64,000 nt of DNA from positions 64,005 to 128,004 of the IMG/VR virus record IMGVR_UViG_3300027749_000049; one strand, written 5' to 3'. This stretch comes from a virus. Shown here one piece after another: positions 3,901-19,438 of this stretch. Numbering within the stretch: position 1 is the stretch's first letter; every line of letters starts with the position of its first letter. The translations under genes and the position numbers were made by a program. Below the pieces are notes generated by a model. It was not told the origin of the DNA. It saw nothing but the letters and a program-made list of their open reading frames with translations, and ran no database searches.

Positions 3901-4005
3901 TAGAGAAAAAAGCATTTAACTCCTTTAGCCTATGCATTTTTTTGGATCTAAACTTTGTGGTTGGATAGAGTATAAGATTTCTGTAAAATATAATTTAGGA
4001 AGAAG

Positions 4006-4317
4006 ATGTTATTACAAACCTTGGTTGCAGAATTTCTAAGAATTCTCGAGAAGTCTGGCCGGGACTGGCACCAAATAGCATGGGCAATTCGCGGTTTGGA
4101 ATCTGAAGTCCGGGATTCAAGTCTCACGGCGGCGGATTGGTATCCGGAATTAGAAGAGTATTTAGGGAGCAGAGTTGTTGAAGCCTTGATCCTCGCAAGA
4201 GCCGAGGCAATAGACCGAGAAGAGTTTGAATGGGCGCATGAAATAACCCGCAGACTGGCAGAGTTAGGTTGGGAAAAATTTGAGGAAGAAGAATGTTACA
4301 GAGACCAAAGGATATAA
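4006..4317 (+). CDS. Hypothetical protein with UvrB/C (UVR)-like motif
   Basis: EAIDREEFEWAHEI. Confidence 0.55.
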   Translation: MLLQTLVAEFLRILEKSGRDWHQIAWAIRGLESEVRDSSLTAADWYPELEEYLGSRVVEALILARAEAIDREEFEWAHEITRRLAELGWEKFEEEECYRDQRI

Positions 4318-4481
4318 TCGACCAGACTCTTGAGACCGCGCTAAAAAAACCAGGTCTAATTGACTGGAACTGGATCTTAGCAGATCTATTGGAGAAAAAG
4401 GTTGGGGTAGAAAAAAAGATTCTTTACCGCAGGGTTAAAGCCCTCCTAAAGTCTAGAAGAGAAGAACCTTGGTTATGGTAA
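4293..4481 (+). CDS. Hypothetical protein
   Basis: ORF coupled to the upstream gene. Confidence 0.45.
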   Translation: MLQRPKDIIDQTLETALKKPGLIDWNWILADLLEKKVGVEKKILYRRVKALLKSRREEPWLW

Positions 4482-4517
4482 GATATACTTATACAGAAAT
4501 ATAAAATATAATACAAT

Positions 4518-4739
4518 ATGAAAAATAGAAAAGAACAGATTGTTCAGTTACTTGGAGCGCTCGCGATTGGATTTGCAGCCTCGGTAATAATGGCTTTTCC
4601 AGTTAAATGGCTCTGGAACTGGTTGATTCCAGAAATTTTTACAGGTGTTGCGCAGATTTCTGCACTGCAGGCTTGGGGTCTAGTATTCCTAATCCAATTG
4701 TTGGTACCTAAATCCGGAAAAGACTTAACTAAGAAATAA
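4518..4739 (+). CDS. Small membrane protein
   Basis: Two hydrophobic segments, WLWNWLIPEIF. Confidence 0.7.
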   Translation: MKNRKEQIVQLLGALAIGFAASVIMAFPVKWLWNWLIPEIFTGVAQISALQAWGLVFLIQLLVPKSGKDLTKK

Positions 4740-4744
4740 TTGGT

Positions 4745-4975
4745 ATGGGAAAAGGCGGACGCAAAGGCGGAACAGAAGACAGGGTACAAGAAAAGATTGA
4801 CCGGACCCGAGGTCAAGACCGGGATTCAGATCCAGGATTTTGGCCCTATCTAAAAATGGTAGAAGACTGGGCTGGAAGACATAATTTTTCCTACACCGAA
4901 GCCGAGGTCAAGCAGGCCTGGACAAGCGGCCAATGGGTAGAAGATTTTATTCTAGTTAAATGTAAACGTAGATAA
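4745..4975 (+). CDS. Hypothetical protein
   Basis: ORF followed by a terminator hairpin. Confidence 0.5.
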   Translation: MGKGGRKGGTEDRVQEKIDRTRGQDRDSDPGFWPYLKMVEDWAGRHNFSYTEAEVKQAWTSGQWVEDFILVKCKRR

Positions 4976-4996
4976 CTCTTAACCAAATCTTTTCTG

Positions 4997-5034
4997 AAAA
5001 GGTCCCTAACTATTTTTTAGTTGGGGACCTTTTT
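4997..5034 (+). terminator. Intrinsic terminator
   Basis: AAAAGGTCCCTAACTA...TAGTTGGGGACCTTTT hairpin with T tract. Confidence 0.7.
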
Positions 5035-5151
5035 TCTTTAACGAGTTCCGCAAATTGTTAATAACTTTTTTCTAAAATAATTCACTAAAAATTTTTTAGT
5101 CTCAAATAGATTTGTTATATTTACTCTATCAACCAATCTAAAAAATCAACT

Positions 5152-5670
5152 ATGAGAAACCAATCAACTCCCCGTCCGAACCTCAACCCACTCGCTCTTC
5201 CAAAACTTGCCTTAGCGGGCAGAGCGGTGCTTACCTTTCGCAATCTTGCAGAAGGCAGCCACATGACAGTTAAAATCAAGCAGTTGCGCGACAAGCAAGA
5301 TCGCAAGAAAATGCTGCCAATTTTCTACGTGTACATTTCTTTACTTAACGACGGTCGTACCGGCATGGATTTTGCAGGTACCCTGTTCGCGGAGGATATG
5401 GGAACCAAACTTGGTCGCGGAGTTCAGCCGGACTCTCGCCTAGCCCGTGCTCTGGGCTGGATCGTAGCCGCAATCAAAAATCCTGAAATCTTACGCGGTC
5501 GAGTTGGACTCTTCCATGAAGGTAGATGTTGCAAATGCGGACTACCGCTTACCCATCCGGAATCTATCCACACCGCTCTTGGCCCAGTATGCTTGGAGAG
5601 AATGGTAGCCGCCGCACAAAGAGAAGAATTCAACATTGCCGAAATCTTTACACCGATCGAGTCTATTTAG
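5152..5670 (+). CDS. DUF6011-like Zn-finger protein
   Basis: GRCCKCGLPLTHPESIHTALGPVC. Confidence 0.7.
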   Translation: MRNQSTPRPNLNPLALPKLALAGRAVLTFRNLAEGSHMTVKIKQLRDKQDRKKMLPIFYVYISLLNDGRTGMDFAGTLFAEDMGTKLGRGVQPDSRLARALGWIVAAIKNPEILRGRVGLFHEGRCCKCGLPLTHPESIHTALGPVCLERMVAAAQREEFNIAEIFTPIESI

Positions 5671-5773
5671 ACTCGGCCGGCTCGGTCTCCCTAGTCCCAG
5701 TTGTTAATAACTTTATTTTTCCGTGTCAAAAATTATACTTATATTTGTATTAACCAATCTAAACCAACCAAAC

Positions 5774-5986
5774 ATGACAGAAGAACAATCGCTAATTTTC
5801 AGCCAGGTGTTAGACACCAATTGGCAAGTTAAAGAACTAATGGACGCCAACAAATGGCTCGAGTCTTTTGAGAAAGTAAAAGAGTTAAATGCCTTAAAGC
5901 AGAAACTTAAAGAGTCAATGGGCGCGGCCGCGTACGATAAATTTATTACTACTGGCCAGAAAATGTTTGCCTCAAGTCAAGATTAA
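5774..5986 (+). CDS. Early hypothetical protein
   Basis: ATG after promoter cassette and A/C-rich leader. Confidence 0.7.
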   Translation: MTEEQSLIFSQVLDTNWQVKELMDANKWLESFEKVKELNALKQKLKESMGAAAYDKFITTGQKMFASSQD

Positions 5987-6009
5987 TTAACCCTTAACCA
6001 AACTTAACC

Positions 6010-6195
6010 ATGAAGAAGAAAATCAAATCATTTATCGAACGATTAGCCGGTCTTGACCAGACAGCCGGAACCCCAGTAAACTTGGAATTTGGCGGCGGTC
6101 CACGACTACAGAGCACAGTGTTACCGGATGAGACCCTAGGCTTCAACGAGTTTTGGGAAAGGGTATATAAGCTCAACGGTCAAAAGACTCCCTAG
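6010..6195 (+). CDS. Early hypothetical protein
   Basis: ORF with A/C-rich leader. Confidence 0.6.
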   Translation: MKKKIKSFIERLAGLDQTAGTPVNLEFGGGPRLQSTVLPDETLGFNEFWERVYKLNGQKTP

Positions 6196-6247
6196 TCCCA
6201 GTGTTATACCTAATTAATTATTAATCAACCCATAAAACAAATCAACT

Positions 6248-6556
6248 ATGCAAGAATACAAATTAGAACTTGGAGAAGACGAATATCAAGTAACACTTGA
6301 GTTTGGTAAATACCATGGAAACGGAAGAACTGCAATTACTGTTGTAGATGCAACGTTCGGTGAAGACCTTCTAGTAGCTACGGTAAATATACCGGAAGCA
6401 AGTTTGGAAGAAGGAGAAACTGTAATAAAAGATTATTCAGAGAACGAAGGAATCCTAAAGTTCTTAGTCGAGAATAAGATCGTTAGTAAACCAGTCAGAA
6501 CCGTAAGCACAGGTTTTGTACAATGTCAGGTGGTTAAATTATTAATTAATCCTTAA
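6248..6556 (+). CDS. DUF4313-like phage protein
   Basis: ATVNIPE...IKDYSENEGILKFLVENKIV...STGFV pattern. Confidence 0.6.
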   Translation: MQEYKLELGEDEYQVTLEFGKYHGNGRTAITVVDATFGEDLLVATVNIPEASLEEGETVIKDYSENEGILKFLVENKIVSKPVRTVSTGFVQCQVVKLLINP

Positions 6557-6560
6557 GCCT

Positions 6561-6932
6561 ATGAAGAGTATCAAAGTTCGATTTAATTTAGGAGCCGGTA
6601 AAAACTTTATGAAATGGAAGATTGAAAGACCGGACGGTAATGTATCATACCACTCGCCAAAGGAGGTTCAACTCGTAATGGCAGGTTGCGTGTTAAAAAA
6701 TCAAAGGTCCACTGCACTTAAAATATTTCAAGGAGCAAATAAAACTGTCTGCTCTTGGATACTATGTGAGAGCATAGAAATTAGGGTACCAACGATTTCA
6801 AAGATAAACGAACTAGATCGGGTTTCTTATAATCCAAGAGTAACACCCAATTGGATCTTTCAAGGTTCGGTTGCGGATGGAACCCGATTTAATAATTTGG
6901 TAAGCTTAGATAATAAAGTTTATAATTGTTAA
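6561..6932 (+). CDS. Hypothetical phage protein
   Basis: Full ORF in operon. Confidence 0.7.
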   Translation: MKSIKVRFNLGAGKNFMKWKIERPDGNVSYHSPKEVQLVMAGCVLKNQRSTALKIFQGANKTVCSWILCESIEIRVPTISKINELDRVSYNPRVTPNWIFQGSVADGTRFNNLVSLDNKVYNC

Positions 6933-7002
6933 TAACTTTATTTTCAGGTCTCAAACCCTTTTGTTATATTTACAATCTAAACCCCTAAAAACCAAACCAA
7001 TC

Positions 7003-7248
7003 ATGGCAAAAAAAGAATTCACAGTAAAACAAGGGCTAGCAGTCCAAGCCGATAACATGGCGTTCTGGAAAAAACTCTTAAAGAAGAAACACTATGCAAC
7101 ATTAGAAGAAGTTGTTGCTACACGAAATAGAGAGATCAAAGCTCGAGACGGTTATGAGGTCTATCGCGGTTCAGATATAAGTTGCGCAGTGCAGAACTTG
7201 TTCTATATTTCTGGAGAGTGTGACTCATTAATTCCAGTGGAAGACTAA
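7003..7248 (+). CDS. Early hypothetical protein
   Basis: ATG after promoter cassette. Confidence 0.7.
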   Translation: MAKKEFTVKQGLAVQADNMAFWKKLLKKKHYATLEEVVATRNREIKARDGYEVYRGSDISCAVQNLFYISGECDSLIPVED

Positions 7249-7483
7249 GGTACAAGTAATCCTACATTATAAAAAGCGCGGCCAGTCAGCTGCGCTTTTT
7301 TGGTATAGTATAATTATTATTAAAGACCAAAGAGATGAGACACGATAACCAGGGCAAGAGACCCGATCAACTAGACCTCTCTGCTAAATTAGCAAGTATA
7401 GCAGTAATAGGAATCTTAATTAGTGTAATTATTATTAAGATATTTGGGTAAGATAATATTATAACCAACTAGATATAAAGGAT

Positions 7484-7759
7484 ATGGAAGCACGGGATTT
7501 AGAAAAGAAAAAGATTATTACAGACTTAACTGACTTGGCTCAAAGTCTAGTAATTGGCGGAATCCGTAAAGACCAGCCGGATATTTTAATGTTAGGCAAG
7601 ACCTTGCTTGCAGCAATTGGAGCAGTAGAAACACCGGGCGGTGCAGACATTCTAGAAGGTGTACTTAGAGAAACAAGCAACCGGATAAGAGTAGAACAAG
7701 AGCCGGATAAGGTGCTAAAAGATTTACTTAGTGGGCTAGGAATCTCAACTAATGGGTAA
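7484..7759 (+). CDS. Hypothetical protein
   Basis: ORF track. Confidence 0.6.
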   Translation: MEARDLEKKKIITDLTDLAQSLVIGGIRKDQPDILMLGKTLLAAIGAVETPGGADILEGVLRETSNRIRVEQEPDKVLKDLLSGLGISTNG

Positions 7760-7869
7760 TATAACTTTAAATAAGAAACTAAATTTGATTGGTTTGGTTG
7801 ATCCAGGACTGGGAACCCTAACAGGTTCCCTTTCCAGGTATTAGGAGCCAAAGTTAAATACAAGATAAT

Positions 7870-8820
7870 ATGAAAAACATAAATTCAAAAGACGTCGTAA
7901 GAACCTTAGCCGAAAACAAAGAGAGTTACGATAAGTACGTAAACGAGATTGGAAAAAACAGACCCTTAAGCCGGGAAGAAGAGCTTGAAACCTTTGCACG
8001 AATCGCGGCTGGCGACGAGACCGCGGTAACCAAGATTATAAAACATAACCTGCTGTTTGTTGTAACGGTTGCAAAGAAATACCAGAACGTTGTGCAACAA
8101 GGTAGCTTGACTCTAGAAGACTTGATAAGCGAGGGTAATGTTGGGCTAGCCAAAGCGGTCCGCCGTTTTGACCCTGCAACCGGTAACAAATTTATATCAT
8201 ATGCAGTATGGTGGATCAAGCAGACAATAATAGAAGCAATCAACGATCACGTTAAGGTAATCCGAATTCCTTCTAATGCAAGATACACTATGAATACTCT
8301 TAATGAGATAGAACGAGAGCTTGAAGCAAAGCACGGCAGACCGGTTACGGTTGACGAATTATTGGAAGCAGCGGAGGTCCATCCAAAGATGGAAAATAAA
8401 ATGAAGCTCTCTACTCGAGTTATTGCAGACCTTAAAGGAGTAACTGGCTTTGAGAAAAGAATAGACGATCCAATTGGTCAGGATTCCGAAGAGAGCTTTG
8501 GAGACCGATTGGAATCTGCAGATAAAACAGATTCCGGACTATACAAGGAAGAAAGGTCTAGAGTAATAGAGGCAATGTTGGCTGGCCTAACGTCCGAAAC
8601 ACGGGAATGGATTAACTTGGTGTATGGGCTCAACGGCTCGGAACCTCAAAGTTATAAAAGCGTTGCTGACCGATTTGAGTGTAGTCCGGAAACTATTAGA
8701 CAGCGAGTTAACATGGCTCTCACTAGAATCCGCCGAACCCATAAAGATAAACTAAATTACTTTGACCCAAATTATACTGGAAGAGATTCACAGTATAAAA
8801 GAATTAGACCGACCTGGTAA
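7870..8820 (+). CDS. RNA polymerase sigma70 factor (RpoD/SigA-like)
   Basis: Region 1.2 PLSREEE; region 2 HNLLFVVTVAKKY...DLISEGNVGLAKAVRRFD...KFISYAVWWIKQ; region 4 HTH PETIRQRVNMAL. Confidence 0.9.
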   Translation: MKNINSKDVVRTLAENKESYDKYVNEIGKNRPLSREEELETFARIAAGDETAVTKIIKHNLLFVVTVAKKYQNVVQQGSLTLEDLISEGNVGLAKAVRRFDPATGNKFISYAVWWIKQTIIEAINDHVKVIRIPSNARYTMNTLNEIERELEAKHGRPVTVDELLEAAEVHPKMENKMKLSTRVIADLKGVTGFEKRIDDPIGQDSEESFGDRLESADKTDSGLYKEERSRVIEAMLAGLTSETREWINLVYGLNGSEPQSYKSVADRFECSPETIRQRVNMALTRIRRTHKDKLNYFDPNYTGRDSQYKRIRPTW

Positions 8821-8916
8821 TTGTTAATAACTTTTGAAAAAAGATTCCCTAAACATTTTTTTGTTTGGGGATTTTTTGTTATATTTGTACTCTAAACCAA
8901 TCTAAAAAAATCAATT

Positions 8917-9150
8917 ATGAAACAGGAAGTTAAGATTAAAAAAGTTTACGCGGCCGGCATTATAAATCCAAAAGACCAATGGTCTTGGCAAGGTACGGTG
9001 GTTGCCCATTCAATAGCGGAAGCTAAAAGATTATTAACCTCATATAAAAAAGAGGATGGTATGCAGGGTCGTTGCGAGGTAATCGATATGGATGGACCTC
9101 ATTATACAAATCGCCCAATCGGCGTAAGCGATTCTACTCAATTATTTTAA
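8917..9150 (+). CDS. Early hypothetical protein
   Basis: Follows promoter cassette. Confidence 0.7.
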   Translation: MKQEVKIKKVYAAGIINPKDQWSWQGTVVAHSIAEAKRLLTSYKKEDGMQGRCEVIDMDGPHYTNRPIGVSDSTQLF

Positions 9151-9400
9151 ATCAATCTAAACCCCAAATCTCATGATAAAGAAAATTATAATCGCAGCAA
9201 TCGTAATACTGTTGATACTTAAGTTTAGACTCGTTGGAGAAATTATTATTTCAGTCCTAAATTTATTGGAGTCAATTGTACGGACCCTAATCTCAATTTA
9301 ATTGTTAATAACTATTTTTAAAATAAATGAAAATAAATTTTTTAGTGTCAAACCTATTTGTTATATTTGTATTCTAAACCAATCTAAAAAAACTAAAATC

Positions 9401-9574
9401 ATGTCAGACAGAAAAATCGCCTTTACAATATTAGAAGAACTTCGCGCAGCGGGTTTTTCAGACACCCAAATCCTAGAAGATATTTTAGGTAATCAATTAT
9501 CCGGATCTGAAGCAGCAGAGGCAATCACTGCAACAGCTGAAGCATTTAACGAGTACATGGATTTTAATTCTTAA
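9401..9574 (+). CDS. Early hypothetical protein
   Basis: Follows promoter cassette. Confidence 0.65.
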   Translation: MSDRKIAFTILEELRAAGFSDTQILEDILGNQLSGSEAAEAITATAEAFNEYMDFNS

Positions 9575-9608
9575 TCAATTTAACCAACCCCTAAAAACCT
9601 TATCAATT

Positions 9609-10004
9609 ATGGAAATCAAATTAACCACAACCGAATCAGAAGAAATATTTCATAACGCTCTTTGCAACGGGCTAGGCTACGTGCAAGGATATGGAATCGA
9701 ATTGGATTTCTTTAAGCAAGACTATGAACGAGCTTCTAGTGCCTTAAAGCAGGAAAATCCTGGAACCCAAATCTGTTACGAAGATGTTTTACTTAGACTC
9801 TTGAAAGACGGTAAAGAACTTACAATGGTCGATCACGAATGCGAAGGAGAATATACTCGTTCTATTTCTATCAAGGATGTCCACGAGCGAGTTTCTAAAA
9901 CTCCAATCAGACACTTGATGAATATGATAAATGAAGAAGACGATGCTGAAACTGCTGATGTAGTTTTACAGACAGTATTCTTTGAAGACGTAATATTCGG
10001 CTAG
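9609..10004 (+). CDS. Hypothetical phage protein
   Basis: C-terminal DAETADVVLQTVFFEDVIFG, a motif seen in phage early proteins. Confidence 0.75.
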   Translation: MEIKLTTTESEEIFHNALCNGLGYVQGYGIELDFFKQDYERASSALKQENPGTQICYEDVLLRLLKDGKELTMVDHECEGEYTRSISIKDVHERVSKTPIRHLMNMINEEDDAETADVVLQTVFFEDVIFG

Positions 10005-10128
10005 CCGGAACCGGCTTTGGCCGGTTCTCCCTAGTCCCAAATTGTTAATAACTTTATTTTTTAGTGTCAACTTAATTACTTATATTTGCTTTATCAATTA
10101 TTAATCAACCCTTAAAAACAAATCAATC

Positions 10129-10548
10129 ATGGCAACAAGAAGCAGAATCGCAATTGAAAATTCAGACAAGACAGTATCAAGTATTTACTGCCACAGTGAC
10201 GGCTACCCTGAAGGAGTCGGTCAAACCCTAATGTCTTTCTATCAAGACAGAACAAAAGTTGAAGAGCTAATCGCTCTTGGCGATCTTAGTATCTTGGGAG
10301 CCCGAACAGCCCCAACCCCAGGTACTCCGCATTCGTTTGATGGAGAACGAGAAAAAGGAGTAACAGTAGCCTACCACCGGGACCGAGGTGAAGATCTCCC
10401 TAGTCCCAGACTTGATGCCGGGTTAGCGGTATTCAACGAGTCAGACGTTGAACAATACGGATACGTATTTACTCTTGACGGAGAATGGTACATGGTAGAA
10501 AACGGTACCGATTTTAGAGAATTAGTACCACTATCTGAAATATTATAA
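10129..10548 (+). CDS. Conserved phage early protein
   Basis: MATRSRIAI...SIYCHSDGYPEGVG family motif. Confidence 0.8.
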   Translation: MATRSRIAIENSDKTVSSIYCHSDGYPEGVGQTLMSFYQDRTKVEELIALGDLSILGARTAPTPGTPHSFDGEREKGVTVAYHRDRGEDLPSPRLDAGLAVFNESDVEQYGYVFTLDGEWYMVENGTDFRELVPLSEIL

Positions 10549-10607
10549 AAATAAATTTTTTAGTGTCAAAATAATTAGTTATATTTACAATCTAAAACCA
10601 ATCAATC

Positions 10608-11336
10608 ATGAGCAATAAAAGATTTGAAACAGCAGCCGGTCTGCCACAGTATTTTAAAAGTTTAGATAGGCATTCTAAACCAATCAGTAAAGAAGAAGAG
10701 CATAATCTGGCCAGACGAATTCAGGCTGGAGACGAGACGGCGGTAGATATTTTAGTAACAGCCAATCTTAAGTTCGTTGTAACTCTTGCCAATAAGTTTA
10801 TTGGTATGGGCTTATCAATTGAAGACTTAATTCAAGAAGGAAATGCTGGTCTTATCGAAGCTGCTCGTAAGTTTACAGCAGATAAGAATGTAAAGTTTAT
10901 AACCTATGCCCAATTCTGGATTCGCAAAAGATTAAATCTTTCTCTTTGCGAGTATGGAAGAACAGTTAGGATTCCGGTAAATCAGGAATACGATCTATAC
11001 AAACGCAAGATGGCAGGTGAATCAATTAACCTTACTAATATTGCACTAGATCGCCCAATCGGCGAGGATGGAGACAATACGCTAGGTGATCTTATCTTAA
11101 GAACAGAAGCAGTTGATCCATTTGAATCACAGGAAACTACACAGTTTATTAATCGATTACTCTGCAAGTTAAAGGTAACCGATAGAGAAATTGTAGAATT
11201 ATTCTATGGTCTAGTAGGCGATGGCTTATCTACAAAAGAAATCGCTGCTCAAGTCGGTAAAACTCCAGCGGAAGTTAATCGTTCTCTTAAAGTTGCTAGA
11301 GCTCAAATGAGAAAGGAGGTTGTATGCAAACGCTAA
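10608..11336 (+). CDS. Second RNA polymerase sigma70 factor
   Basis: ANLKFVVTLANKF...EDLIQEGNAGLIEAARKF...KFITYAQFWIRK; region 4 HTH. Confidence 0.9.
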   Translation: MSNKRFETAAGLPQYFKSLDRHSKPISKEEEHNLARRIQAGDETAVDILVTANLKFVVTLANKFIGMGLSIEDLIQEGNAGLIEAARKFTADKNVKFITYAQFWIRKRLNLSLCEYGRTVRIPVNQEYDLYKRKMAGESINLTNIALDRPIGEDGDNTLGDLILRTEAVDPFESQETTQFINRLLCKLKVTDREIVELFYGLVGDGLSTKEIAAQVGKTPAEVNRSLKVARAQMRKEVVCKR

Positions 11337-11539
11337 CTCATGCAAGTACAATGGCCGAAATGGCGGTAGATATTTTATTCTCGGAAGGAGACCCATTCAG
11401 AGGTAAAGTAGACAGACTTAAATTATACGATGCAATTCGTCAAGCCACATTGAAGAAATTAGTTATTGAAGACCATGATATTCTAGATGAGGAAGAATTC
11501 CAGGAATGCCTAAAGGTTTCTAAAATAGAAAATTGTTAA
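11324..11539 (+). CDS. Hypothetical protein
   Basis: Overlaps the sigma stop codon. Confidence 0.6.
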   Translation: MQTLTHASTMAEMAVDILFSEGDPFRGKVDRLKLYDAIRQATLKKLVIEDHDILDEEEFQECLKVSKIENC

Positions 11540-12021
11540 TAACTTTTGAAAAATAAGTCCCCAACCATTTTTTTGTTTGGGGATTTTTTGTTATATTTGC
11601 TCTATATTAATCAATTAACCCCAATAGACAATGAAAAAGCCAAAGACTGCCCCAAAGAAATTACTCAAACAACTAGAGTATTTTAAACAAACTGCCGATT
11701 TCTTCCGAAATGCAACAGGAACCCAGAACGATTTGGATAATGCTGCACAATACGATCGATGGGCTGATGGTGTACAGAAACAAATAGATGATATTATTAA
11801 TTCTTAATCCAATATCCTATGAAAATCTTAAGCATTATAAATAATGAATTCGTAGAAATCCTATGGATTGACGATTCAGAAATAGAGTTAATTCCTATTC
11901 AAGAGTTTATTGATATCCATGGGGTTGAGAAGTTAGAAGCCTTTAAAAATAAGGCCTAATCTTTTGACCCCAATTAGGTATAATAATACTAGCAGAAATA
12001 GGAAAATAAATAATAGAAACC

Positions 12022-12285
12022 ATGGCAGACTTAAATCAATACTCGCGAATCTTATTGGATCTTATCCATCTTAGACAGACTGATTACGATGCCTTCATGA
12101 ATAGACTTTATGAAGCCCTAACCGGCGAGTTTAAAGATGCTCTTTACGATAAGAGCCCAATTGAAGAGAAATCTCAAGCAGTTTGGAGCATGATAAAACA
12201 TTTTGAAAAACAGGAAGAATTTGAGAAATGCGCAAGTCTCAAGAAGATGATAGAAGAAATTGACCATAAACCCCTTAACAAATAA
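12022..12285 (+). CDS. Hypothetical protein with UVR-like motif
   Basis: FEKQEEFEKCASLKK. Confidence 0.65.
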   Translation: MADLNQYSRILLDLIHLRQTDYDAFMNRLYEALTGEFKDALYDKSPIEEKSQAVWSMIKHFEKQEEFEKCASLKKMIEEIDHKPLNK

Positions 12286-12356
12286 GACTATGTGTATACT
12301 CGCAGGAATCCTAGTAATTGTAGCACTCATTGCTCAATTTAAAATAAAAGACTAAT

Positions 12357-12656
12357 ATGGCAGCTTCATTAATTAAAATCGTAACCTCAACCTCAATTCG
12401 AGAGTTTACGCCAGCAGCAGTAGTAAAGATTGAATACCAGATTGGAGCAAGCAAACTAGATATTGTGTTGCACGGCTTGGTTGTTGTAACACTACAATTA
12501 CAGTCAGCAGCGGAAGCCTTAATCAAGCTAGGCCAGCTCGAGACTGCCATGAATTCTGGAACTGGGATTGCAACAATAACTGAGACGCCAACTGTTACAA
12601 CTACAACTGTTGCTCCAACAACTACCACTACTACATTAGGTTGGCCTCCCGGTTAA
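12357..12656 (+). CDS. Hypothetical protein with Thr-rich tail
   Basis: TPTVTTTTVAPTTTTTT. Confidence 0.6.
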   Translation: MAASLIKIVTSTSIREFTPAAVVKIEYQIGASKLDIVLHGLVVVTLQLQSAAEALIKLGQLETAMNSGTGIATITETPTVTTTTVAPTTTTTTLGWPPG

Positions 12657-12748
12657 TAACTTTGTTAATAACTTTTGGGAAATAAATTTTTTAGTGTCAA
12701 AAAGATTTGTTATATTTGTATTCTAAACCAATCTAAAAACAATCAACC

Positions 12749-13132
12749 ATGACAAAATTATTTTTAATTCGCTTCGGCCAAACTCCAAGTCCAATCGTAT
12801 CGCAAGCATTAGCTCCGCATATCGTTGGTAAAGCATCAGCACTTCCAATTCCTGGTGCAGTACTATCCATCTTCAATACTGAGTCATCAATAGAAGATGT
12901 GAGAGCATCCATTGAAGAAACTGGTGCATTCTTTATCTTAACGGATAATGCAGAATTAGTATTACCTCAACCACTAATGGCGGAAATTGAAAAGGTTTTC
13001 CCAAGTGGAGCTCAACCCGTAAAGGAGGATAAAACTTTAACGATGGATGATATCCTTGACCTAATAAGTCAAAATGGAATTGAGTCACTTACTCCATCTC
13101 AACTCCAAATCTTAAGATCCGGTACTGTATAA
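12749..13132 (+). CDS. Early protein with DUF6576-like C-terminus
   Basis: MDDILDLISQNGIESLTPSQLQIL. Confidence 0.6.
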   Translation: MTKLFLIRFGQTPSPIVSQALAPHIVGKASALPIPGAVLSIFNTESSIEDVRASIEETGAFFILTDNAELVLPQPLMAEIEKVFPSGAQPVKEDKTLTMDDILDLISQNGIESLTPSQLQILRSGTV

Positions 13133-13145
13133 TTAACTGAACACA

Positions 13146-13173
13146 AGACTCTCCTTAATGGAGAGTCTTTTTC
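13146..13173 (+). terminator. Intrinsic terminator
   Basis: AAGACTCTCC TTAAT GGAGAGTCTT TTT. Confidence 0.75.
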
Positions 13174-13204
13174 TCCGTGTTAAATAACCAAAAAGCACCT
13201 AATC

Positions 13205-13420
13205 ATGAATGAGATAGTAAGACTATACTTAGAACAAAACGGTACCGAAACCTGTATCAAAGACCCAGCCGAAATGATCAGACTCTTGAGTTCTGCAACG
13301 GATGATATAGACCTGGATTACCATGACCAGCGCGGACACGCCAAAGCCGGATCAAGTCGAGACCTAATTGGAAAGACTGTTAAGATCGGAGACCACGAAT
13401 TGGAAATACCTCAACACTAA
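13205..13420 (+). CDS. Hypothetical protein
   Basis: ORF track. Confidence 0.6.
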   Translation: MNEIVRLYLEQNGTETCIKDPAEMIRLLSSATDDIDLDYHDQRGHAKAGSSRDLIGKTVKIGDHELEIPQH

Positions 13421-13509
13421 ATTGTTAATAACTTTTCCCAAAATAATAGGACCCAGATTTTTTAGTTTGGGTTTTTTTTGGTATATTAGAATAAATAAAC
13501 AATAAAAAA

Positions 13510-13956
13510 ATGGTAAACCTAAAAAAATTATTAGTAATAATTGCAGCTTGGAATCAAGCAGATCAGGATGAATCTACTTTAGCTGAATTACAATCTTACT
13601 ATGCGGACAAAAATATCCAAGCTCTATCCTTGGAAGATCTGACAAGCCGTACGTCTTTCTTGCCTAATAGCCTTGTGATGACATGCGAAGATGATCCAAG
13701 AGATTCATGTTTTTATACAGAAGATGGAATTCATCTTACTCCAATAGTGATGATAGATGCAAATAGTCAAGAAGAAATAGATCCCAAAGAAGTTCTAACC
13801 GAAGAAGAAGCAGAAGACGAAGGTTACGAATACTACGACTTTGAAACGTTTATGGACCATTTCGAAGGATACGAAAACATACTACTAAACTTTAAAATTA
13901 CTAGAGTCAACAGTATTAAAGAAGGAACTGTACTTCGATTTGACGAATTTATCTAA
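13510..13956 (+). CDS. Acidic hypothetical protein
   Basis: Asp/Glu-rich ORF after promoter cassette. Confidence 0.7.
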   Translation: MVNLKKLLVIIAAWNQADQDESTLAELQSYYADKNIQALSLEDLTSRTSFLPNSLVMTCEDDPRDSCFYTEDGIHLTPIVMIDANSQEEIDPKEVLTEEEAEDEGYEYYDFETFMDHFEGYENILLNFKITRVNSIKEGTVLRFDEFI

Positions 13957-13975
13957 AAACAATTAATCTAGCTAC

Positions 13976-14011
13976 AAAAAGCGGTTCGGAAACGGGCCGC
14001 TTTTTTTTTTT
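13976..14011 (+). terminator. Intrinsic terminator
   Basis: AGCGGTTCG GAAA CGGGCCGCT plus long T tract. Confidence 0.8.
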
Positions 14012-14247
14012 GAAAATAATTGGAAAAAGTTTTTTACTGTCAAGTTTTTGTTTTATATTAGCTTTGTAATTAATTTTACTACGGTTCGCTGAACAAGCGC
14101 AGAGGGTAGACTCCGACCTACGACACTGTGTAAGTTGTTAACACACGATTGTTAATAACTTTATTTAAAAATAATTCACAAATAATTTTTTAGTGTCAAA
14201 CCTATTTGTTATATTTGCTCTATATTAATCAATTAAAAAAATCAACT

Positions 14248-14505
14248 ATGGCAAATTCAATGCAACCAATCAACGCTCAAATTCTTAGGTCAGAGTTAAA
14301 TCAGCGTATCGTAAAATTCTTTTTTGTAAAGAAAGACGGCAGCCTCAGAGAGGTACATGGTACAACCAAACTTGCGCACGTTCCTGCGGACAAACATCCA
14401 CAAGGAGTACGTGAAACCCCAGCCAGCGTGATCACCTTCTGGGATCTCTTAGCGGGCGATTGGCGCAGTGCTAAAGTAGAAACACAATTCTTTATTAACG
14501 ACTAA
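14248..14505 (+). CDS. SH3-fold (WYL_2/DUF2693-like) protein
   Basis: VKFFFVKKDGSLREVHGT...FWDLLAGDWRS. Confidence 0.75.
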   Translation: MANSMQPINAQILRSELNQRIVKFFFVKKDGSLREVHGTTKLAHVPADKHPQGVRETPASVITFWDLLAGDWRSAKVETQFFIND

Positions 14506-14524
14506 CCCCCTAAACCTAAATCAC

Positions 14525-14710
14525 ATGGCAACACAAGAAGCAATCAATGAAGCAATTGCCCAATGGGGCGAAGACGCAGTCTATCAAGCAATGGAAGTCG
14601 TAGCGATGTCAGATGCTGACGGAGCTTGGTCAATGTTCGAAGATATGGGCATGTTCGAATGCGCGGAAGTAGTAGAATTTCTTTACTTCGATGGTGCGGC
14701 TGACGACTAA
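14525..14710 (+). CDS. Small acidic protein
   Basis: ORF track. Confidence 0.6.
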   Translation: MATQEAINEAIAQWGEDAVYQAMEVVAMSDADGAWSMFEDMGMFECAEVVEFLYFDGAADD

Positions 14711-14764
14711 AGAATAAATAACTGTAGTACATTAGTAGTAATTAACCAATCAAAAATCAAACTT

Positions 14765-15895
14765 ATGCAAGAGAAAATCGGTAAAAAAGAAATCACAGTC
14801 AGAGACTTTTTCGAGAACCACCATAGTGGTCGAGTTCCTAACTTAACAGTACAACAGCTGTACACGCAGTTCATGACGCAAGGCTCTGATGCTACTGGTA
14901 TATCTTATGGCCTCTTCAATGGAGTAGTTAAGAAACTCCGCTTTGAGACCGGCGACTCCCTAGTCCCGGCTGCAGGTCAAAGTACAATAGCGCGCCCAAC
15001 CTCACAAGACCAGGCGGACTCCGTAGTAACAATAAGCGACGAGCCGGAGATCTTCGAGATTGGATCAATGCAATTCCCTGACTTCAAGAAGTTTACCACA
15101 GGTACAGTGTTTGACCAGTTAATGTCAGATCATGACGAAGAGGGCGGAGTGTTTGCAGGTACAGCCAATATAGTTATTGGAGAGTCAGGAGTTGGTAAGT
15201 CAACTATTACATTAGACCTCTTAGCTAAGATTAAACAGCAGCAACCGGATGCAAAGGTGCTCTATATCTCTAGTGAAATGACACGTAACGACTTGTATTT
15301 CTATTACAAGAAAATGCCAATCATTGAAACTATTCCTACTCTCTTGATTATGGATTACCTACTAGGTCGTTTTGACAGGACCTTGCAAAAAGCAATCAAC
15401 GGCGACTATGACGTAATCTTAATTGACTCTCATCAGGATATTATTGTTAAACTAAAAGATGTCTTAGGCTGGAAGAGTACAAGAGCTGAGACTTGGTTAA
15501 CCAATCTTATTATTGAAGCAGCAGACAAGAAAGGAAAAGCAATCTTTGCAATTCAACACATGACCAAAGGCGGTCAGTATGTTGGTTCAACCTATCTAAA
15601 GCATGCGACAACAAGTATGATGGAAATCCGCAAGGACGAGACTGGTCGCCGATACGCTGAGTTTACAAAGAACCGTCGTGGAGGTAGTCTGGTAGGTAAG
15701 CGCCTTTATTACTCCCTAGTAAACGGAGAGGTTCAATGGGACAAAGACTCATGGAGACAAGAGAATGTTGTTGCTGAACTTGCAGGTCAGGAGTCAGAAC
15801 GCCGCCACCAGTTAGAGGGTCAGTTTAACGATCTTTTCTTGAGTGTTAAACGTCCAAGAACTGAAGAGGAAACTGCTGCTACTGAAGCCGAGTAG
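14765..15895 (+). CDS. RadA/Sms-like RecA-fold ATPase
   Basis: Walker A GESGVGKS, LYISSEM, Walker B ILIDS, HMTKGG, KNRRG. Confidence 0.8.
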   Translation: MQEKIGKKEITVRDFFENHHSGRVPNLTVQQLYTQFMTQGSDATGISYGLFNGVVKKLRFETGDSLVPAAGQSTIARPTSQDQADSVVTISDEPEIFEIGSMQFPDFKKFTTGTVFDQLMSDHDEEGGVFAGTANIVIGESGVGKSTITLDLLAKIKQQQPDAKVLYISSEMTRNDLYFYYKKMPIIETIPTLLIMDYLLGRFDRTLQKAINGDYDVILIDSHQDIIVKLKDVLGWKSTRAETWLTNLIIEAADKKGKAIFAIQHMTKGGQYVGSTYLKHATTSMMEIRKDETGRRYAEFTKNRRGGSLVGKRLYYSLVNGEVQWDKDSWRQENVVAELAGQESERRHQLEGQFNDLFLSVKRPRTEEETAATEAE

Positions 15896-15950
15896 TCGGA
15901 AACTAGTGCACAATTTTTAGTATATTAACCTTATAAAATAAAAAATAGAC

Positions 15951-17069
15951 ATGATAAACCAATCGCAATTCAACCAAGCAAAACAGGAACTTTCAGGATT
16001 AGATCCGTTAGTTAAGAGAGTAAAGCTCTCCGATATTATCTTAAATGATAATTCAATTAAACACAATTCAATTGAGATTGAAGGCTCAAGAGTTCCAGTC
16101 TCAGACAAGTTCTTCAACCGTCTAGGCCAAATGGTAAACCTTAATACTGGGTTAATGGGCAAAATGTCTAAGGTCGGGGACAAGGAGATCGAGACCAAGT
16201 TGTTGCAGTCAGTAAAAGCCTATTCTGAAACCCGCGATGGTGGTAAAGAGTTCTTATTGGTAGGCGACGGTGCAAGCCATCAGGTTACTAATATCGTGCG
16301 AGCTGACAAATACCACAGGTTATCTAACGATACCTTATTCGCGACTGCTGACACTATCCTAAATGAAATTCCGGATATGCATATCGAGTCTATTGACCGT
16401 ACTGGTCCAGGTGGAGTAAGTATTAATCTTATCCATGGCAGCCAAGTTGGTTACGAGAAAATTGGTAAGGACGAGGTATTCCGTTTTGGGATCTCCCTAG
16501 TAAATGGTGCTACATCAAGTCGAGTTGACGATTTCTTCTACCGCCTTGCATGCGCAAACGGTGCAGTTGCTCGTAACTTAAATACAGCATTTGAATTTGG
16601 TAACGGCGACGAAGCCTTCCGTAAATTGCTAGAGCAAATGAGCGGTTGGGCAAAAGCAGGTTTTGTACCACGTACTTTCCAAGACAGACTGGAACGTGCA
16701 ATGGTAACCAAAGCAAGCTATTCGGAAGTTGAAAAAGCCTTGTACTCAGTAACTGGTGCAATCGGCGAAAAGGATTTCGATATGGCTGCCAAGTTGGTAA
16801 AGGGTGCAGAACAACAGTTCTTCCCAGAATACGATGCGGCTACTAAACGTATCTTCCGTGCCGGCCACAATCCACTAAGCTTAACTGATGCTCAAAAGAA
16901 GTTTATCAAAACTGATGCTACGGTTTGGGATGTTGTTAACGAATTAACCTGGATTGGAAGTCATGATACAATCTTTGACCTTAAGAATTCAAAAGGTTTT
17001 AAAGTAGCAGGTGGTAATCTATTCGCTAAGACATGGGATCTAGAACATGCAGGTTTAGCGCAAATCTAA
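15951..17069 (+). CDS. DUF932-like protein
   Basis: GISLVNG...FYRLACANGAV and TVWDVVNELT motifs. Confidence 0.55.
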   Translation: MINQSQFNQAKQELSGLDPLVKRVKLSDIILNDNSIKHNSIEIEGSRVPVSDKFFNRLGQMVNLNTGLMGKMSKVGDKEIETKLLQSVKAYSETRDGGKEFLLVGDGASHQVTNIVRADKYHRLSNDTLFATADTILNEIPDMHIESIDRTGPGGVSINLIHGSQVGYEKIGKDEVFRFGISLVNGATSSRVDDFFYRLACANGAVARNLNTAFEFGNGDEAFRKLLEQMSGWAKAGFVPRTFQDRLERAMVTKASYSEVEKALYSVTGAIGEKDFDMAAKLVKGAEQQFFPEYDAATKRIFRAGHNPLSLTDAQKKFIKTDATVWDVVNELTWIGSHDTIFDLKNSKGFKVAGGNLFAKTWDLEHAGLAQI

Positions 17070-17092
17070 TCCTTATATAATACACACTCTAA

Positions 17093-17122
17093 GAAGGGGT
17101 CCTCAACAGGGACCCCTTTTTT
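17093..17122. terminator. Intrinsic terminator between convergent genes
   Basis: AGGGGTCCT CAACA GGGACCCCT TTTT. Confidence 0.75.
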
Positions 17123-17126
17123 GGGT

Positions 17127-17261
17127 TTAACCTTGACCTACATTGCGCTTAACATAGTACTTACTGTTCTTGCTTACTGATGTCTTCTTTTTAGAGTGGA
17201 CACCAGGTCTGCGACGCTTGGCTTTGGCTACCCGATTGGTTGTGGTTGACTGTTTGGCCAT
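17127..17261 (-). CDS. Small basic protein (44 aa), not in the ORF track
   Basis: MAKQSTTTNRVAKAKRRRPGVHSKKKTSVSKNSKYYVKRNVGQG; convergent on the terminator. Confidence 0.6.
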   Translation of the reverse strand: MAKQSTTTNRVAKAKRRRPGVHSKKKTSVSKNSKYYVKRNVGQG

Positions 17262-17393
17262 TAGTTAAATCTATATTTTTATACTATTTAATCCCAAAAA
17301 CCGTGCAGTCCCGGCGAGGACCCTGGAATCGGCCCCAGGCCATGGGGATTTTCGTCACACAGTACTATCCTCGCCCCGAATATAAATAACCAT

Positions 17394-17795
17394 ATGAAAG
17401 AAGCTTCTACATCAGACATTAGTTTTGTCCGGTTCTGTATTGCAGAATTAGGGATCGAAACAAGTCCCAATATCAGGATAGGCGATGACCACCGTAAGGC
17501 GCAAGAGCACCGAGCTATGGGTTACTATAGTCCAGCAGATAACTTGATCTGGGTGTTACGCGGTAGTCGGGTACCTGCAGACTGGTATCGAACCCTAGCC
17601 CATGAATTGGTCCACTGGCGCCAGCGCGAGCTAGGCCAAGGTTTGGACGGTGCAGACGGTAGCGAAATCGAGAATGAAGCTAACTCTAAAGCAGCAGTAC
17701 TCTTACGGGAATGGGGTAGAAGAGATGAATTAATTTATGTCTTACCTAATGAGGCGCAACCGGCTGACCCCCAAGTAGAGCCTGCGACCCCATAA
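17394..17795 (+). CDS. Zn metallopeptidase-like protein (HExxH)
   Basis: RTLAHELVHWRQ...ENEAN; TATAAATA at 17381-17388. Confidence 0.75.
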   Translation: MKEASTSDISFVRFCIAELGIETSPNIRIGDDHRKAQEHRAMGYYSPADNLIWVLRGSRVPADWYRTLAHELVHWRQRELGQGLDGADGSEIENEANSKAAVLLREWGRRDELIYVLPNEAQPADPQVEPATP

Positions 17796-18411
17796 TCAGG
17801 TAGCTTAAGTCTTCCTTTAACTCTGCCCTGTATTCTTCCTGATACAGGGTTTTTTGTATAACATGCAGTTCAACACCGTGCCAGACCAGGAATCTCTCTA
17901 GAATCTCAGCACCCGCAAACCTGGCCAGCCTGTCCGGGGTCTCAACTATAACCATGCTTATCTGCTTGCGTAACACTAAGTCAAAGATCTTGTCTAGCCC
18001 AGACCTGCCGACTAGGCTACCAGCCTTACCGACCTCCGCAATTACCTGGTCTACCCTGATCCCGGCCGCCGTGCAGTAGGCTAGCACCCGGTCCTGCTGA
18101 GCCTGCAGCCGGGTTCGGGATGAGACGCCGGCCGCGCCCTGGTCCGGAATTCCCGCCGCCCGGCAGTAGACTACGACTTCCCTAGACTGGGGTAGTTTAC
18201 TCCCTAGTAGCTTCAAGAGGTCCTGCTTGTCGTAGTAGATCCGGCCGTTGATCTCGTTCTTCCAGTGTCTTAGGGTACCGGCTTTAACGTAGCGGTCTAG
18301 GGTCTTTAAGGAAATACCTAGGAATTCCGCGGCCCCCTTCTTGTACACGAGCTCGCCGGTTGGGAACTCGGTTAGGGGTCTAGAGTCTGGGGTCTGGGCT
18401 GGTTCCTGCAT
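17746..18411 (-). CDS. IS607 TnpA-like serine recombinase (MerR-type HTH plus resolvase domain), catalytic Ser apparently replaced
   Basis: AAEFLGISLKTLDRY HTH; YCRAAG where YARVS is expected; DRLARF; late promoter GATAAATA at 18417-18424 (minus). Confidence 0.8.
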   Translation of the reverse strand: MQEPAQTPDSRPLTEFPTGELVYKKGAAEFLGISLKTLDRYVKAGTLRHWKNEINGRIYYDKQDLLKLLGSKLPQSREVVVYCRAAGIPDQGAAGVSSRTRLQAQQDRVLAYCTAAGIRVDQVIAEVGKAGSLVGRSGLDKIFDLVLRKQISMVIVETPDRLARFAGAEILERFLVWHGVELHVIQKTLYQEEYRAELKEDLSYLIMGSQALLGGQPVAPH

Positions 18412-18549
18412 GGGGTTATTTATCTACTGCCCGGCCTGCCCGCTTGGACAGCCCCCGGCCCCGGGTCCAGCAGTGTCCATATACTTCTCGAGTCCGGGCC
18501 CCCTCTAGAGCCCGGGAGCCTGCTCGGGTCCGTGGAGGCCGCGGTCGCC

Positions 18550-18735
18550 GTACTCCCTAGTCCCCATGAATGCACAGCTTGTACCCTTTGGGCGGTGGCA
18601 AGCAGGGGTACTCCCTAGTCCCACGGGGCCGGGGTCAGGGCTGGGCTCGGCTGGCCTGGCAGGGGTACTCCCTAGTCCCGAGCCGGGCTGGCCTGGTTGG
18701 GTAGAGCCGGGCTGGCTGCAGGTACTCCCTAGTCC
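18550..18735 (+). repeat. Periodic array of four GTACTCCCTAGTCC copies
   Basis: Starts at 18550, 18608, 18665, 18722 (58, 57, 57 nt), with G-rich non-identical spacers. Confidence 0.9.
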
Positions 18736-18999
18736 TGGGTAACCAGGACATGGGCCTGCCCTAGACTTGGCTAGTCTAGTAGTCAGGGTCTATAGGATAG
18801 GGTTCTGAATAGGGTTGGGTATAGGGTTGGGTATACGGGTTATTTTTCTTTTTATGTATATAAGTAGACAGAGTCTTGCCTGGAGAGTTTCTTCTTAGAT
18901 TAGTATCTTTACTTAGAGTAGTAGGGCGCGCCTCTAAGCTTTGGGACGCAGGCATACCCACGGCCAGGACCCGGACCGATTGGGTATATTAGACTCAAT

Positions 19000-19086
19000 A
19001 GTCAGGTGGCTGAAATGGTAACAGCACAACGAAACTCTTAGGGTTGTTGGTCAAAACTTATAGGTTCGATTCCTGTCCTGATTACA
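19000..19086 (+). ncRNA. tRNA-like RNA 1 (non-canonical anticodon arm)
   Basis: Acceptor AGTCAGG/CCTGATT-ACA, D arm GCTGAAATGGTAACAGC, T arm ATAGG-TTCGATT-CCTGT. Confidence 0.75.
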
Positions 19087-19160
19087 AATAAATGAGTTCA
19101 CAATTTGCCGATGCACTTCGCCATGCGGATTCACAATGGGCTAATGTACCTCATTTATAC

Positions 19161-19239
19161 AGTCAGGTAGCTAAATGGGTAAAGCGGTTCCTCTTCACAA
19201 AGATGGAATGATGCAGGTTCGAGTCCTGTCCTGACTACA
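19161..19239 (+). ncRNA. tRNA-like RNA 2
   Basis: Acceptor AGTCAGG/CCTGACT-ACA, T arm GCAGG-TTCGAGT-CCTGT, extended bulged central hairpin. Confidence 0.75.
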
Positions 19240-19331
19240 CAGATTAATGGTATAATAACCCTATAAAAGTAGAAACAACGTCTCCCCAGTTTCTTGTTCC
19301 GTGCACGGAAAGGATTTATAAGGAGCAATTT

Positions 19332-19438
19332 AGTCAGGTGGCGGAATGGTAGACGCTAAGAAAGAGATAAACTTTGTACTTCACATGATGGTACACTAAA
19401 GCATTATCTCGTATAGGTTCGAATCCTATCCTGACTAC
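19332..19438 (+). ncRNA. tRNA-like RNA 3 (Leu-type D arm, long irregular helix)
   Basis: AGTCAGG-TGGCGGAATGGTAGACGC...ATAGG-TTCGAAT-CCTAT-CCTGACT-ACA; helix GAGATAA/TTATCTC. Confidence 0.8.

Follow-up and report, generated by a model that had tools for sequence, protein, structure and literature searches.

In this study, we analyzed a 64,000-nucleotide stretch of viral DNA (positions 64,005 to 128,004 of IMG/VR record IMGVR_UViG_3300027749_000049; hereafter, the window) and found that a short word, CTCCCTAGT, marks an early gene module on one strand only. The word is confined to this module, is conserved at the nucleotide level in related phages, and is constantly associated with a gene (17746-18411, minus strand) for an IS607-type TnpA homologue in which the nucleophilic serine is replaced by alanine. 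We tentatively interpret the words as binding sites of this domesticated, probably inactive transposase, which would organize or silence the early module. The phages concerned form a clade of uncultured ~270-kb phages, probably infecting Bacteroidota. The window is the second half of a 128,004-base record with a CheckV completeness of 46%, and it is AT-rich (~0.35 GC) with nearly all genes on the plus strand.

The 9-mer CTCCCTAGT occurs 12 times on the plus strand of the window and never on the minus strand, compared with 0.28 copies expected, and none of 100 shuffled sequences reached 12. The copies start at 5687, 6188, 10027, 10396, 14956, 15712, 16493, 18200, 18553, 18611, 18668 and 18725. 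Extended to a 12-mer, CTCCCTAGTCCC, the motif is exact at 5687, 6188, 10027, 10396, 14956, 18553, 18611 and 18668, and it has one mismatch at 18725. The source record of 128,004 bases contains the same 12 forward and 0 reverse copies, every one of them within window positions 5687-18733, and a reversed control word is present there on neither strand (0/0). A previous sequence-only reading of this DNA had listed the motif coordinates, all of which agreed with our recount, and its claim that the word is restricted to the plus strand, with no copy outside 5.6-18.8 kb, holds for the window and for the whole record; the count of both strands against the background also came out in its favor. The sole variant copy recorded in the window, CTCCGTAGT (15019..15027, plus strand), lies 63 nt past the copy at 14956.

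The same pattern is found in related phages. Searching viral contigs with the neighboring 372-residue DUF932-like protein gave 15 loci, among them four near-identical ~270-kb genomes and one of 253 kb, and the word was present at all 15. In whole-record counts, forward and reverse copies numbered 10 and 0 in 271,160 bases, 0 and 10 in 270,136 bases, 0 and 13 in 253,137 bases, 0 and 13 in 110,950 bases, and 7 and 0 in 78,376 bases, and in each of these five records all copies fell inside one stretch of 8-17 kb. The records that are 94-100% complete according to CheckV carry 10, 10 and 13 copies, on one strand and within 8-11 kb of 253-271 kb; that is, the word is confined to ~3% of the complete genomes and absent from the other 97%. 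The claimed confinement to the early module was therefore upheld in complete genomes, and the same word, polarity and 56-58-bp spacing were seen in every related ~250-270-kb freshwater jumbo phage that was fetched. When 11 sequences were compared (the window and ten distinct loci, reaching relatives whose TnpA-like protein is only 44% identical), 103 copies were on the motif strand and 1 was on the other, and gaps of 56-58 nt between copies were observed in all 11. The 103 aligned copies give the consensus (T/G)A-CTCCCTAGT-(A/C)(C/A), and they have no second conserved element at a fixed distance on either side. One-mismatch variants are few in the clade (18 on the motif strand versus 5 on the other), and the commonest, C5 to G (8 versus 0), which is also the change in the window copy at 15019, is often located exactly 57 or 63 nt from an exact copy. 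This variant pattern, with a single dominant tolerated C-to-G change, fits a protein-binding site better than base-pairing.

The position of the word relative to the TnpA-like gene is also maintained. In every relative with the region, the densest cluster (2-5 copies) is located upstream of the start of this gene, within about 150-350 nt. The first two copies of the cluster and the spacer between them are homologous across relatives, the number of further copies varies, and a further copy usually lies inside the gene itself. No copies were found past the array on its far side in any complete genome, and the gene and the array mark the edge of the motif-bearing block; the earlier proposal that the motif region ends in the array can thus be extended to a conserved end-point adjoining the 17746-18411 protein in relatives. 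In the most distant subclade (44-46% identity), a 57-nt pair of copies is placed within the coding sequence of the TnpA-like protein, which contains VLGSR twice, 19 residues apart, and here the DNA signal shapes the protein sequence. As seen in L039-L042 (for example, at 4153 and 4210 of L040), the copy pair forces VLGSR twice, and the second copy falls at the former active-site loop.

The sequence-only reading had proposed that selection acts on the DNA rather than on the protein, and the copies inside genes support this. In a codon alignment of the P-loop ATPase gene (14765..15895, plus strand; 10 sequences, down to ~61% protein identity), 6.3% of third codon positions are invariant, and despite this the longest invariant nucleotide run is the 11-mer TACTCCCTAGT, the next longest being 8 nt; selection on the nucleic acid, not on the protein, is therefore indicated. 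This 11-mer is the motif copy at 15711..15721, where the ATPase frame reads YSLV. Another copy in the same gene (14956..14967) is read as DSLV, and its position is kept in relatives. The copy at 16493..16501 is read as ISLV in the DUF932-like gene (15951-17069), and the copy at 10396..10407 is read as LPSP (DLPSP) in ORF 10129-10548 (phrog_1987), 212 nt before the second sigma-factor gene. The earlier observation that copies inside genes are read in differing frames is thus correct, with DLPSP on the one hand and DSLV, YSLV and ISLV on the other representing two frames. The copy at 18200..18208 lies antisense in the TnpA-like gene, the strand of which reads it as LGS of an invariant LLGS linker. 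For the clade, 111 sites (CTCC[CG]TAGT) were classified against mechanical ORF calls, some of whose plus-strand ORFs are certainly spurious (e.g., 18566-18742 across the array): 50 were in sense ORFs, 50 were intergenic, and 11 were antisense within a long minus-strand ORF. Among the sense copies, 38 are read as xSLV and 12 as LPSx, and none is in the third frame, which would read TAG. Many intergenic copies start 0-33 nt past the upstream stop codon, and in several the TAG of the motif is itself the stop, as for the copy at 6188..6199, which ends ORF 6010-6195 and is followed 60 nt on by the ATG of ORF 6248-6556. The remaining intergenic copies outside the array each follow a GC-rich hairpin and precede a promoter cassette headed by TTGTTAATAAC. 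The one at 5687..5698 is 17 nt past the stop of ORF 5152-5670 and 14 nt before its cassette, and the one at 10027..10038 is 23 nt past the stop of ORF 9609-10004 and 15 nt before its cassette. An offset of 14 nt had been claimed for both; it is right for the first, and the second cassette starts at 10042, one position later than supposed.

The array (18550..18736, plus strand) consists of four GTACTCCCTAGTCC(C/T) copies, which including their GTA prefix start at 18550, 18608, 18665 and 18722, and the copy nearest to the start codon of the TnpA-like gene is 142 nt upstream of it. The claimed 57-58 nt spacing is accurate (58, 57 and 57 bp), and since the periods are 57 and 58, a coding explanation is excluded. 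The array is not a tandem repeat: the spacers (GC 0.65-0.69) are mutually unlike, for which reason Tandem Repeats Finder made no call on it, and the structure is a set of phased copies of a 15-18-nt element. Folding of 18520-18800 on either strand was no better than that of shuffled sequences (z of -0.81 and -0.64), and a search of Rfam at a permissive threshold found no family for the word, returning only tRNA-like matches at 19000-19437 and sub-threshold chance matches. A terminator-like hairpin (17825-17850) stands ahead of the last five motif copies. The non-coding periods, the shuffle-like folding and the hairpin in front of the array together suggest action at the DNA level rather than at the RNA level. 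A CRISPR array was considered and rejected, as CRISPR repeats are 28-37 nt long, whereas the unit here is ~15-18 nt and the word is also dispersed singly; the first spacer of the array is inherited and not acquired, because it is homologous between relatives. Between the array and the start of the TnpA-like gene lies a GC-rich leader (18412..18549) with a conserved palindromic block.

The product of 17746-18411, hereafter the dead TnpA, is encoded by the only reverse-oriented gene of the module, which is syntenic in all relatives. Its assignment as an IS607-type TnpA homologue is based on Pfam, PHROG and structural relatives. Pfam domains HTH_17 (residues 27-69, 7e-9) and Resolvase (residues 99-189, 9.5e-12) were detected, the PHROG match is to 'transposase' (3.6e-27), and the best solved relatives are catalytic domains of IS607-family TnpA. 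The family comprises 82 homologues at E ≤ 1e-5, and those named by their source are called 'uncultured Caudovirales phage' or 'predicted site-specific integrase-resolvase'. In a 14-member family profile, YCRAAG is aligned to YARVSS of 3lhf, and the nucleophile position is occupied by alanine in 13 members and by serine in 1 (P0066). The DRLAR motif is invariant or nearly so, and the HTH and the core are equally conserved (mean column identity 0.71 for each). No tnpB-sized ORF adjoins the gene, whose neighbors are a metallopeptidase gene and the array, and neither the 128-kb record nor the whole-record counts of relatives showed an inverted copy of the word to act as a second end. On sequence grounds, 17746-18411 is thus a fixed phage gene of IS607-type transposase descent, and its product is very probably inactive as a recombinase, because of the change of serine to alanine, the synteny in all relatives and the lack of a tnpB-sized neighbor. 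The serine-bearing member P0066 (53% identical), which has YCRASP at this place, could either be a revertant or still be active.

Winged helices of the excisionase type line up head to tail on asymmetric direct repeats. For the IS607 family, PMC6188088 describes how IS1535 TnpA uses four 9-bp direct repeats upstream of tnpA as a nucleation site, from which it spreads cooperatively over ~70 bp, and how it pairs two ends or captures a second DNA. Given this precedent and the binding mode of winged helices, we propose that the dead TnpA binds the word. The word, (T/G)A-CTCC(C/G)TAGT-(A/C)(C/A), is plausibly a sequence-specific, asymmetric protein-binding site on double-stranded DNA, with the 17746-18411 product as its likeliest reader. 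In the proposed mechanism, the TnpA-derived protein, which has kept its excisionase-type winged helix (HTH_17) and resolvase-fold oligomerization core without the serine nucleophile, would use the array (2-5 copies, ahead of its own gene or, in some relatives, within it) as its nucleation site. It would also bind at the single and paired sites throughout the early module; the shared orientation of these sites would follow from the transcription of the module in a single direction. The resulting polar nucleoprotein structure would control the module, most simply by early-transcription shut-off or as a roadblock, and would regulate the gene of the dead TnpA itself. A stronger version, in which the dead TnpA has been kept as a polar chromatin-like organizer that nucleates on the array and the oriented sites, pairs or coats DNA, and switches off the early block (or shields it from head-on forks) as one unit, is possible, and we would not call it likely. 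Neither an archaeal-type histone (PF00808) nor HU/IHF (PF00216) was found in three records (G000-G002).

Compared with the IS607-family left ends and TnpA proteins of IS1535, IS607 and ISC1926, as described in PMC6188088, the phage system shares several features. The protein has the same order of domains, with an N-terminal MerR/excisionase-type HTH followed by a C-terminal serine-recombinase fold, and short direct repeats in one orientation are present just upstream of the gene; the family is one that nucleates, spreads and pairs DNA. However, the phage protein has alanine in place of the catalytic serine, and the gene is fixed and syntenic, forming no discrete mobile unit, without tnpB and without a second end. 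In addition, the phage repeats are 57-58 bp apart rather than ~10 bp as in IS1535, and 8 or more further copies are distributed over 8-17 kb.

Several points weigh against the dead TnpA as the reader of the word. First, its link to the word, which we infer together with the effect of binding, is drawn from the position of its gene next to the array, the precedent of the family and co-occurrence. The phyletic distribution of the motif is also that of the ATPase, the DUF932-like protein, the metallopeptidase and two sigma factors (a profile search with the DUF932-like protein returned the same clade only), so co-occurrence cannot single out the reader, and any of these module proteins, or a host factor, could take this role. 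Second, the 57-58-bp period, corresponding to ~5.5 helical turns, is far from the ~10-bp phased motifs of IS1535. Third, nine positions are almost without exception invariant across more than 100 sites, a stricter conservation than operator sets usually show. Fourth, simple promoter-operator control fails to explain the layout, since sites accompany just 2 of the 10 early promoter cassettes and roughly half of all sites fall within genes; the link between motif and cassette noted in the sequence-only reading holds for those 2 cassettes only. Finally, P0066 has serine at the nucleophile position. The broader proposal of that reading, a directional protein-binding code, remains the best account of the polarity, the selection and the confinement, while no support was obtained for the specific functions that it offered.

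It is unlikely that the word acts in the rightward early transcripts as a signal for processing, pausing, termination or antitermination, with a fail-safe block formed by the array where the early unit ends, although several observations agree with this. Every copy is on the sense strand of the co-oriented early genes, many of the intergenic ones closely follow or supply a stop codon as described above, the array is at the downstream end of the module in all relatives, and at 11150 of L017 a hairpin followed by a T-run has the word as its 5' arm and loop. However, the hairpin at 17825-17850 stands ahead of the last five copies, the copy within the dead-TnpA gene runs antisense to it, and neither the folding of the array nor Rfam gave any sign of a structured RNA. 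A NusG/RfaH-like gene (PF02357) was not found in G000-G002, where the control was positive, and the tolerated C-to-G change speaks against base-pairing.

A role in replication is distinctly unlikely. The array would then be an origin of the iteron type, or a polar barrier to replication forks where a heavily transcribed unit has its 3' end, and the ATPase module or the dead TnpA would read the dispersed copies as auxiliary sites. A fork barrier would require strict polarity, phased direct repeats do lie beside a short AT-rich tract and G-rich tracts, and the conserved RecA/DnaB-like P-loop ATPase, which itself contains sites, is encoded 2.5 kb away. The iterons suggested by the sequence-only reading are not supported: iterons are 17-22-bp repeats at 1-2 helical turns, whereas the period here is 57-58 bp with unlike spacers, no initiator family was recognized in Pfam and PHROG scans, and the GC skew, which that reading had proposed to map relative to 18.5-18.9 kb, shows no inflection at or near the array, the cumulative skew climbing through the whole record. 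Moreover, the copy number changes from 2 to 5 among close relatives.

It is improbable that the words are packaging, injection-stop or strand-specific nick sites that govern the cutting, packaging or delivery of the early module. Their one-strand specificity and near-invariant sequence resemble enzyme recognition sites, and the module looks like a first-expressed block between GC-rich islands. However, four near-identical ~270-kb assemblies start at four places, none of them at the array; because near-identical assemblies start at different points, there is no fixed genome end beside the array, and this weighs weakly against the packaging or injection-stop signal proposed from the sequence. 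No terminase or nuclease family was recognized in the flanking genes scanned, in which no search was aimed at terminases.

A promoter element for a phage sigma factor or another phage polymerase is highly improbable. The module does encode two sigma-70-family proteins (7870-8820 and 10608-11336), and several copies are located 60-110 nt ahead of start codons, but the 103 aligned copies have no partner element at a fixed distance, half of the copies are deep in genes, and groups of four to five copies at 57-bp intervals in GC-rich DNA do not resemble promoters. As for a T7-type promoter, the word read on the minus strand would point against the genes; a T7-type RNA polymerase (PF00940) gave no match in G000-G002, where the control was also without a match, so that this result is not evidence of absence. 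Lastly, functionless scars, whether remnants of the ends of an IS607-like element or copies of a short mobile repeat that multiplied here, can practically be dismissed despite the neighboring gene of transposase descent and the GC of 0.55-0.69 in gene and array (0.35 in the genome), since synteny and position are maintained for both gene and sites in relatives as distant as 44% protein identity, the copies within genes are under nucleotide-level purifying selection, and there is no inverted copy to serve as a second end.

Asymmetric site sets and domesticated transposases are both of known kinds, and several known systems resemble the one proposed here in part. The C1 repressor of phage P1 has many asymmetric operators scattered on the phage genome, some of them away from promoters; in contrast, the sites described here are co-oriented, occupy ~3% of the genome, end in a phased array, and are in many cases within coding sequence. 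Winged helices of the lambda Xis type form a cooperative filament on asymmetric direct repeats, with adjacent sites at one attachment site. The dead TnpA belongs to the same Pfam class (HTH_17), but its candidate sites have a period of 57-58 bp and are dispersed. Tus-Ter and the rDNA fork barrier use asymmetric oriented sites, with a cluster at the downstream end of a strongly transcribed unit; the oriented sites and the downstream cluster of the phage are alike in layout, and the candidate reader is of another protein family. KOPS and Chi share the strict strand polarity, but those words are genome-wide, whereas the phage word is found in 8-11 kb of 253-271 kb, which argues against the KOPS-like loading sites that had been suggested. 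We found no description of the combination of strict polarity, 57-58-bp phasing, sites within genes and a dead serine transposase as candidate reader.

Scanning 2.9 million viral contigs for two copies of the word 55-59 nt apart yielded 23 stretches, 20 of which are on confirmed clade contigs (by a dead-TnpA match or module-gene homology). Two (G006 and G007) are small fragments without the gene, assigned to the clade by their 56-nt pairs only, and one, in a 69-kb temperate-looking phage without the gene (G008), is a chance overlap with a palindromic operator-like repeat of a different kind. The same scan of one genome per prokaryote species yielded 20 stretches, one of which is a clade member: L081 (CAIWBA010000291.1, 254,203 bases), with 8 polar copies including a five-copy array, was binned in a 'Bacteroidetes bacterium' metagenome-assembled genome (MAG). 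The other prokaryote stretches inspected were mostly 9-nt microsatellite-like tandem repeats or isolated pairs, and none of them has the dispersed polar layout. Among them are GC-rich bacterial contigs with tandem 9-nt repeats CACCCTAGT/CTCCCTAGT, of up to a dozen units, near gene ends (L077, L083, L085, L086, L089 and L092, which are six contigs of a single Flavobacteriales MAG, as well as L075, L088 and others, Prevotella included; further bins were judged by copy spacing only). These bacterial repeats are probably unrelated to the phage motif, despite the shared core.

Among the matches listed in literature searches, we found no account of the word in a phage or of a domesticated IS607 TnpA. 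The papers listed for CTCCCTAGT itself concern nucleosome work. PMC3167622 contains the 12-mer TACTCCCTAGTC, after GGGGAT, in synthetic nucleosome-positioning sequences; this match accounts for at least some literature occurrences of CTCCCTAGT and is probably a coincidence, although unusual bendability of the word is conceivable. Large aquatic phages named 'moraphages', which may be the lineage of the window phage, were described in 2025 with predicted Bacteroidota hosts, and the passages of that paper's main text contain neither 'recombinase' nor 'transposase'. Together with the binning of L081 and the box at the end of the promoter cassettes described below, this paper provides weak hints of Bacteroidota as the host phylum.

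If the proposed reading is correct, the dead TnpA would be a clear case of a serine transposase turned into a DNA-binding factor with cognate sites conserved clade-wide, and if the organizer version holds, a domesticated IS607 TnpA would for the first time be seen in a regulatory or architectural role, and phages would have a new mode of early-gene timing. Under any reading, the polarity, the 57-58-bp phasing and the sites within genes point to a process with a direction, for which a roadblock, a fork barrier and the assembly of a filament are candidates; few phage regulatory elements show such directionality. The 11-nt word and the protein are defined and the array is compact, so that the system can be tested in vitro without the host. 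In addition, 'site-specific integrase-resolvase' labels on such phage genes should be treated with caution in annotation, as these genes probably do not function in recombination.

The other genes near the array belong to the same conserved module. The ATPase (AAA_25, RecA/DnaB-like) gene contains 2-3 motif copies, and the gene of the DUF932-like protein contains one; the predicted structure of the latter (mean pLDDT 60) was too poor for a fold search, and the DUF932 clusters found in the ESM Atlas serve as a lead only. The conserved clade partner of the dead-TnpA gene is a gene for a zincin-like metallopeptidase (17394..17795, plus strand; HELVH ... ENEAN), which is convergent with it and overlaps it by 50 nt. 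An ImmA/IrrE-type pair, in which an M78 metallopeptidase cleaves the HTH repressor encoded beside it, was considered for these two genes. HExxH and ENEAN are conserved in the zincin-like protein; Peptidase_M78 matches 4 of 7 members below threshold (best E 0.0029), and other zincin families score equally or better. A complex prediction for the dead TnpA and the metallopeptidase gave a score of 0.00 without control runs, which speaks neither for nor against binding. Both convergent genes have (T/G)ATAAATA exactly 5 nt before the ATG (17381-17393, plus strand; 18412-18424, minus strand), and the element before the dead-TnpA gene is kept in distant relatives. (T/G)ATAAATA-N5-ATG was considered as a general late promoter and rejected; only 15 such sites precede ORFs in 128 kb, and for this reason we do not rely on a 'late' timing of the dead-TnpA gene.

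The promoter cassettes carry another polar element of the module, independent of the word. The 128-kb record has 10 copies of TTGTTAATAAC on the plus strand and 0 on the minus strand, all within window positions 5055-14159 and often directly adjoining the stop codon of the gene before. Early promoter cassettes are headed by this element and end, at a variable distance, in TTTGTTATATTTG-like boxes, which we take to match the Bacteroidota -7 consensus, and the cassettes are either short or long, the long form having an inserted hairpin and T-run. We also compared contigs from sequencing runs. All 24 matched runs were Logan contigs, one of them RNA with a small share of the words, and such contig data are uninformative on starts, ends, nicks and expression. 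In the four runs compared, there were neither joints between motif copies nor molecule ends, and strain mosaicism was observed with joints at the promoter cassettes. Contigs from other lake samples join across whole early genes at or near cassettes (5746/11609, 9384/14234 and 13484/14074, within window positions 4000-14300), and strains seem to exchange early genes as cassettes with the repeated promoter sequence at their borders.

Further features were noted at the two edges of the module. On the left, at the switch from minus- to plus-strand genes, a second GC-rich island (3326-3900, up to 0.66 GC) contains many CTAG- and CCGG-containing palindromes and no copy of the word. To the right of the array, 18750-18850 carries G-rich short repeats on the plus strand (ATAGGGTTCGGA-like, 3.7 copies), where the GC skew rises to +0.41, followed by a short T-rich tract; both the repeats and the tract are conserved in close relatives. 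Further right, at 19000-19437, the Rfam tRNA model matches three stretches with 50.8, 38.3 and 37 bits, one of which is called as tRNA-SeC(tca) by ARAGORN.

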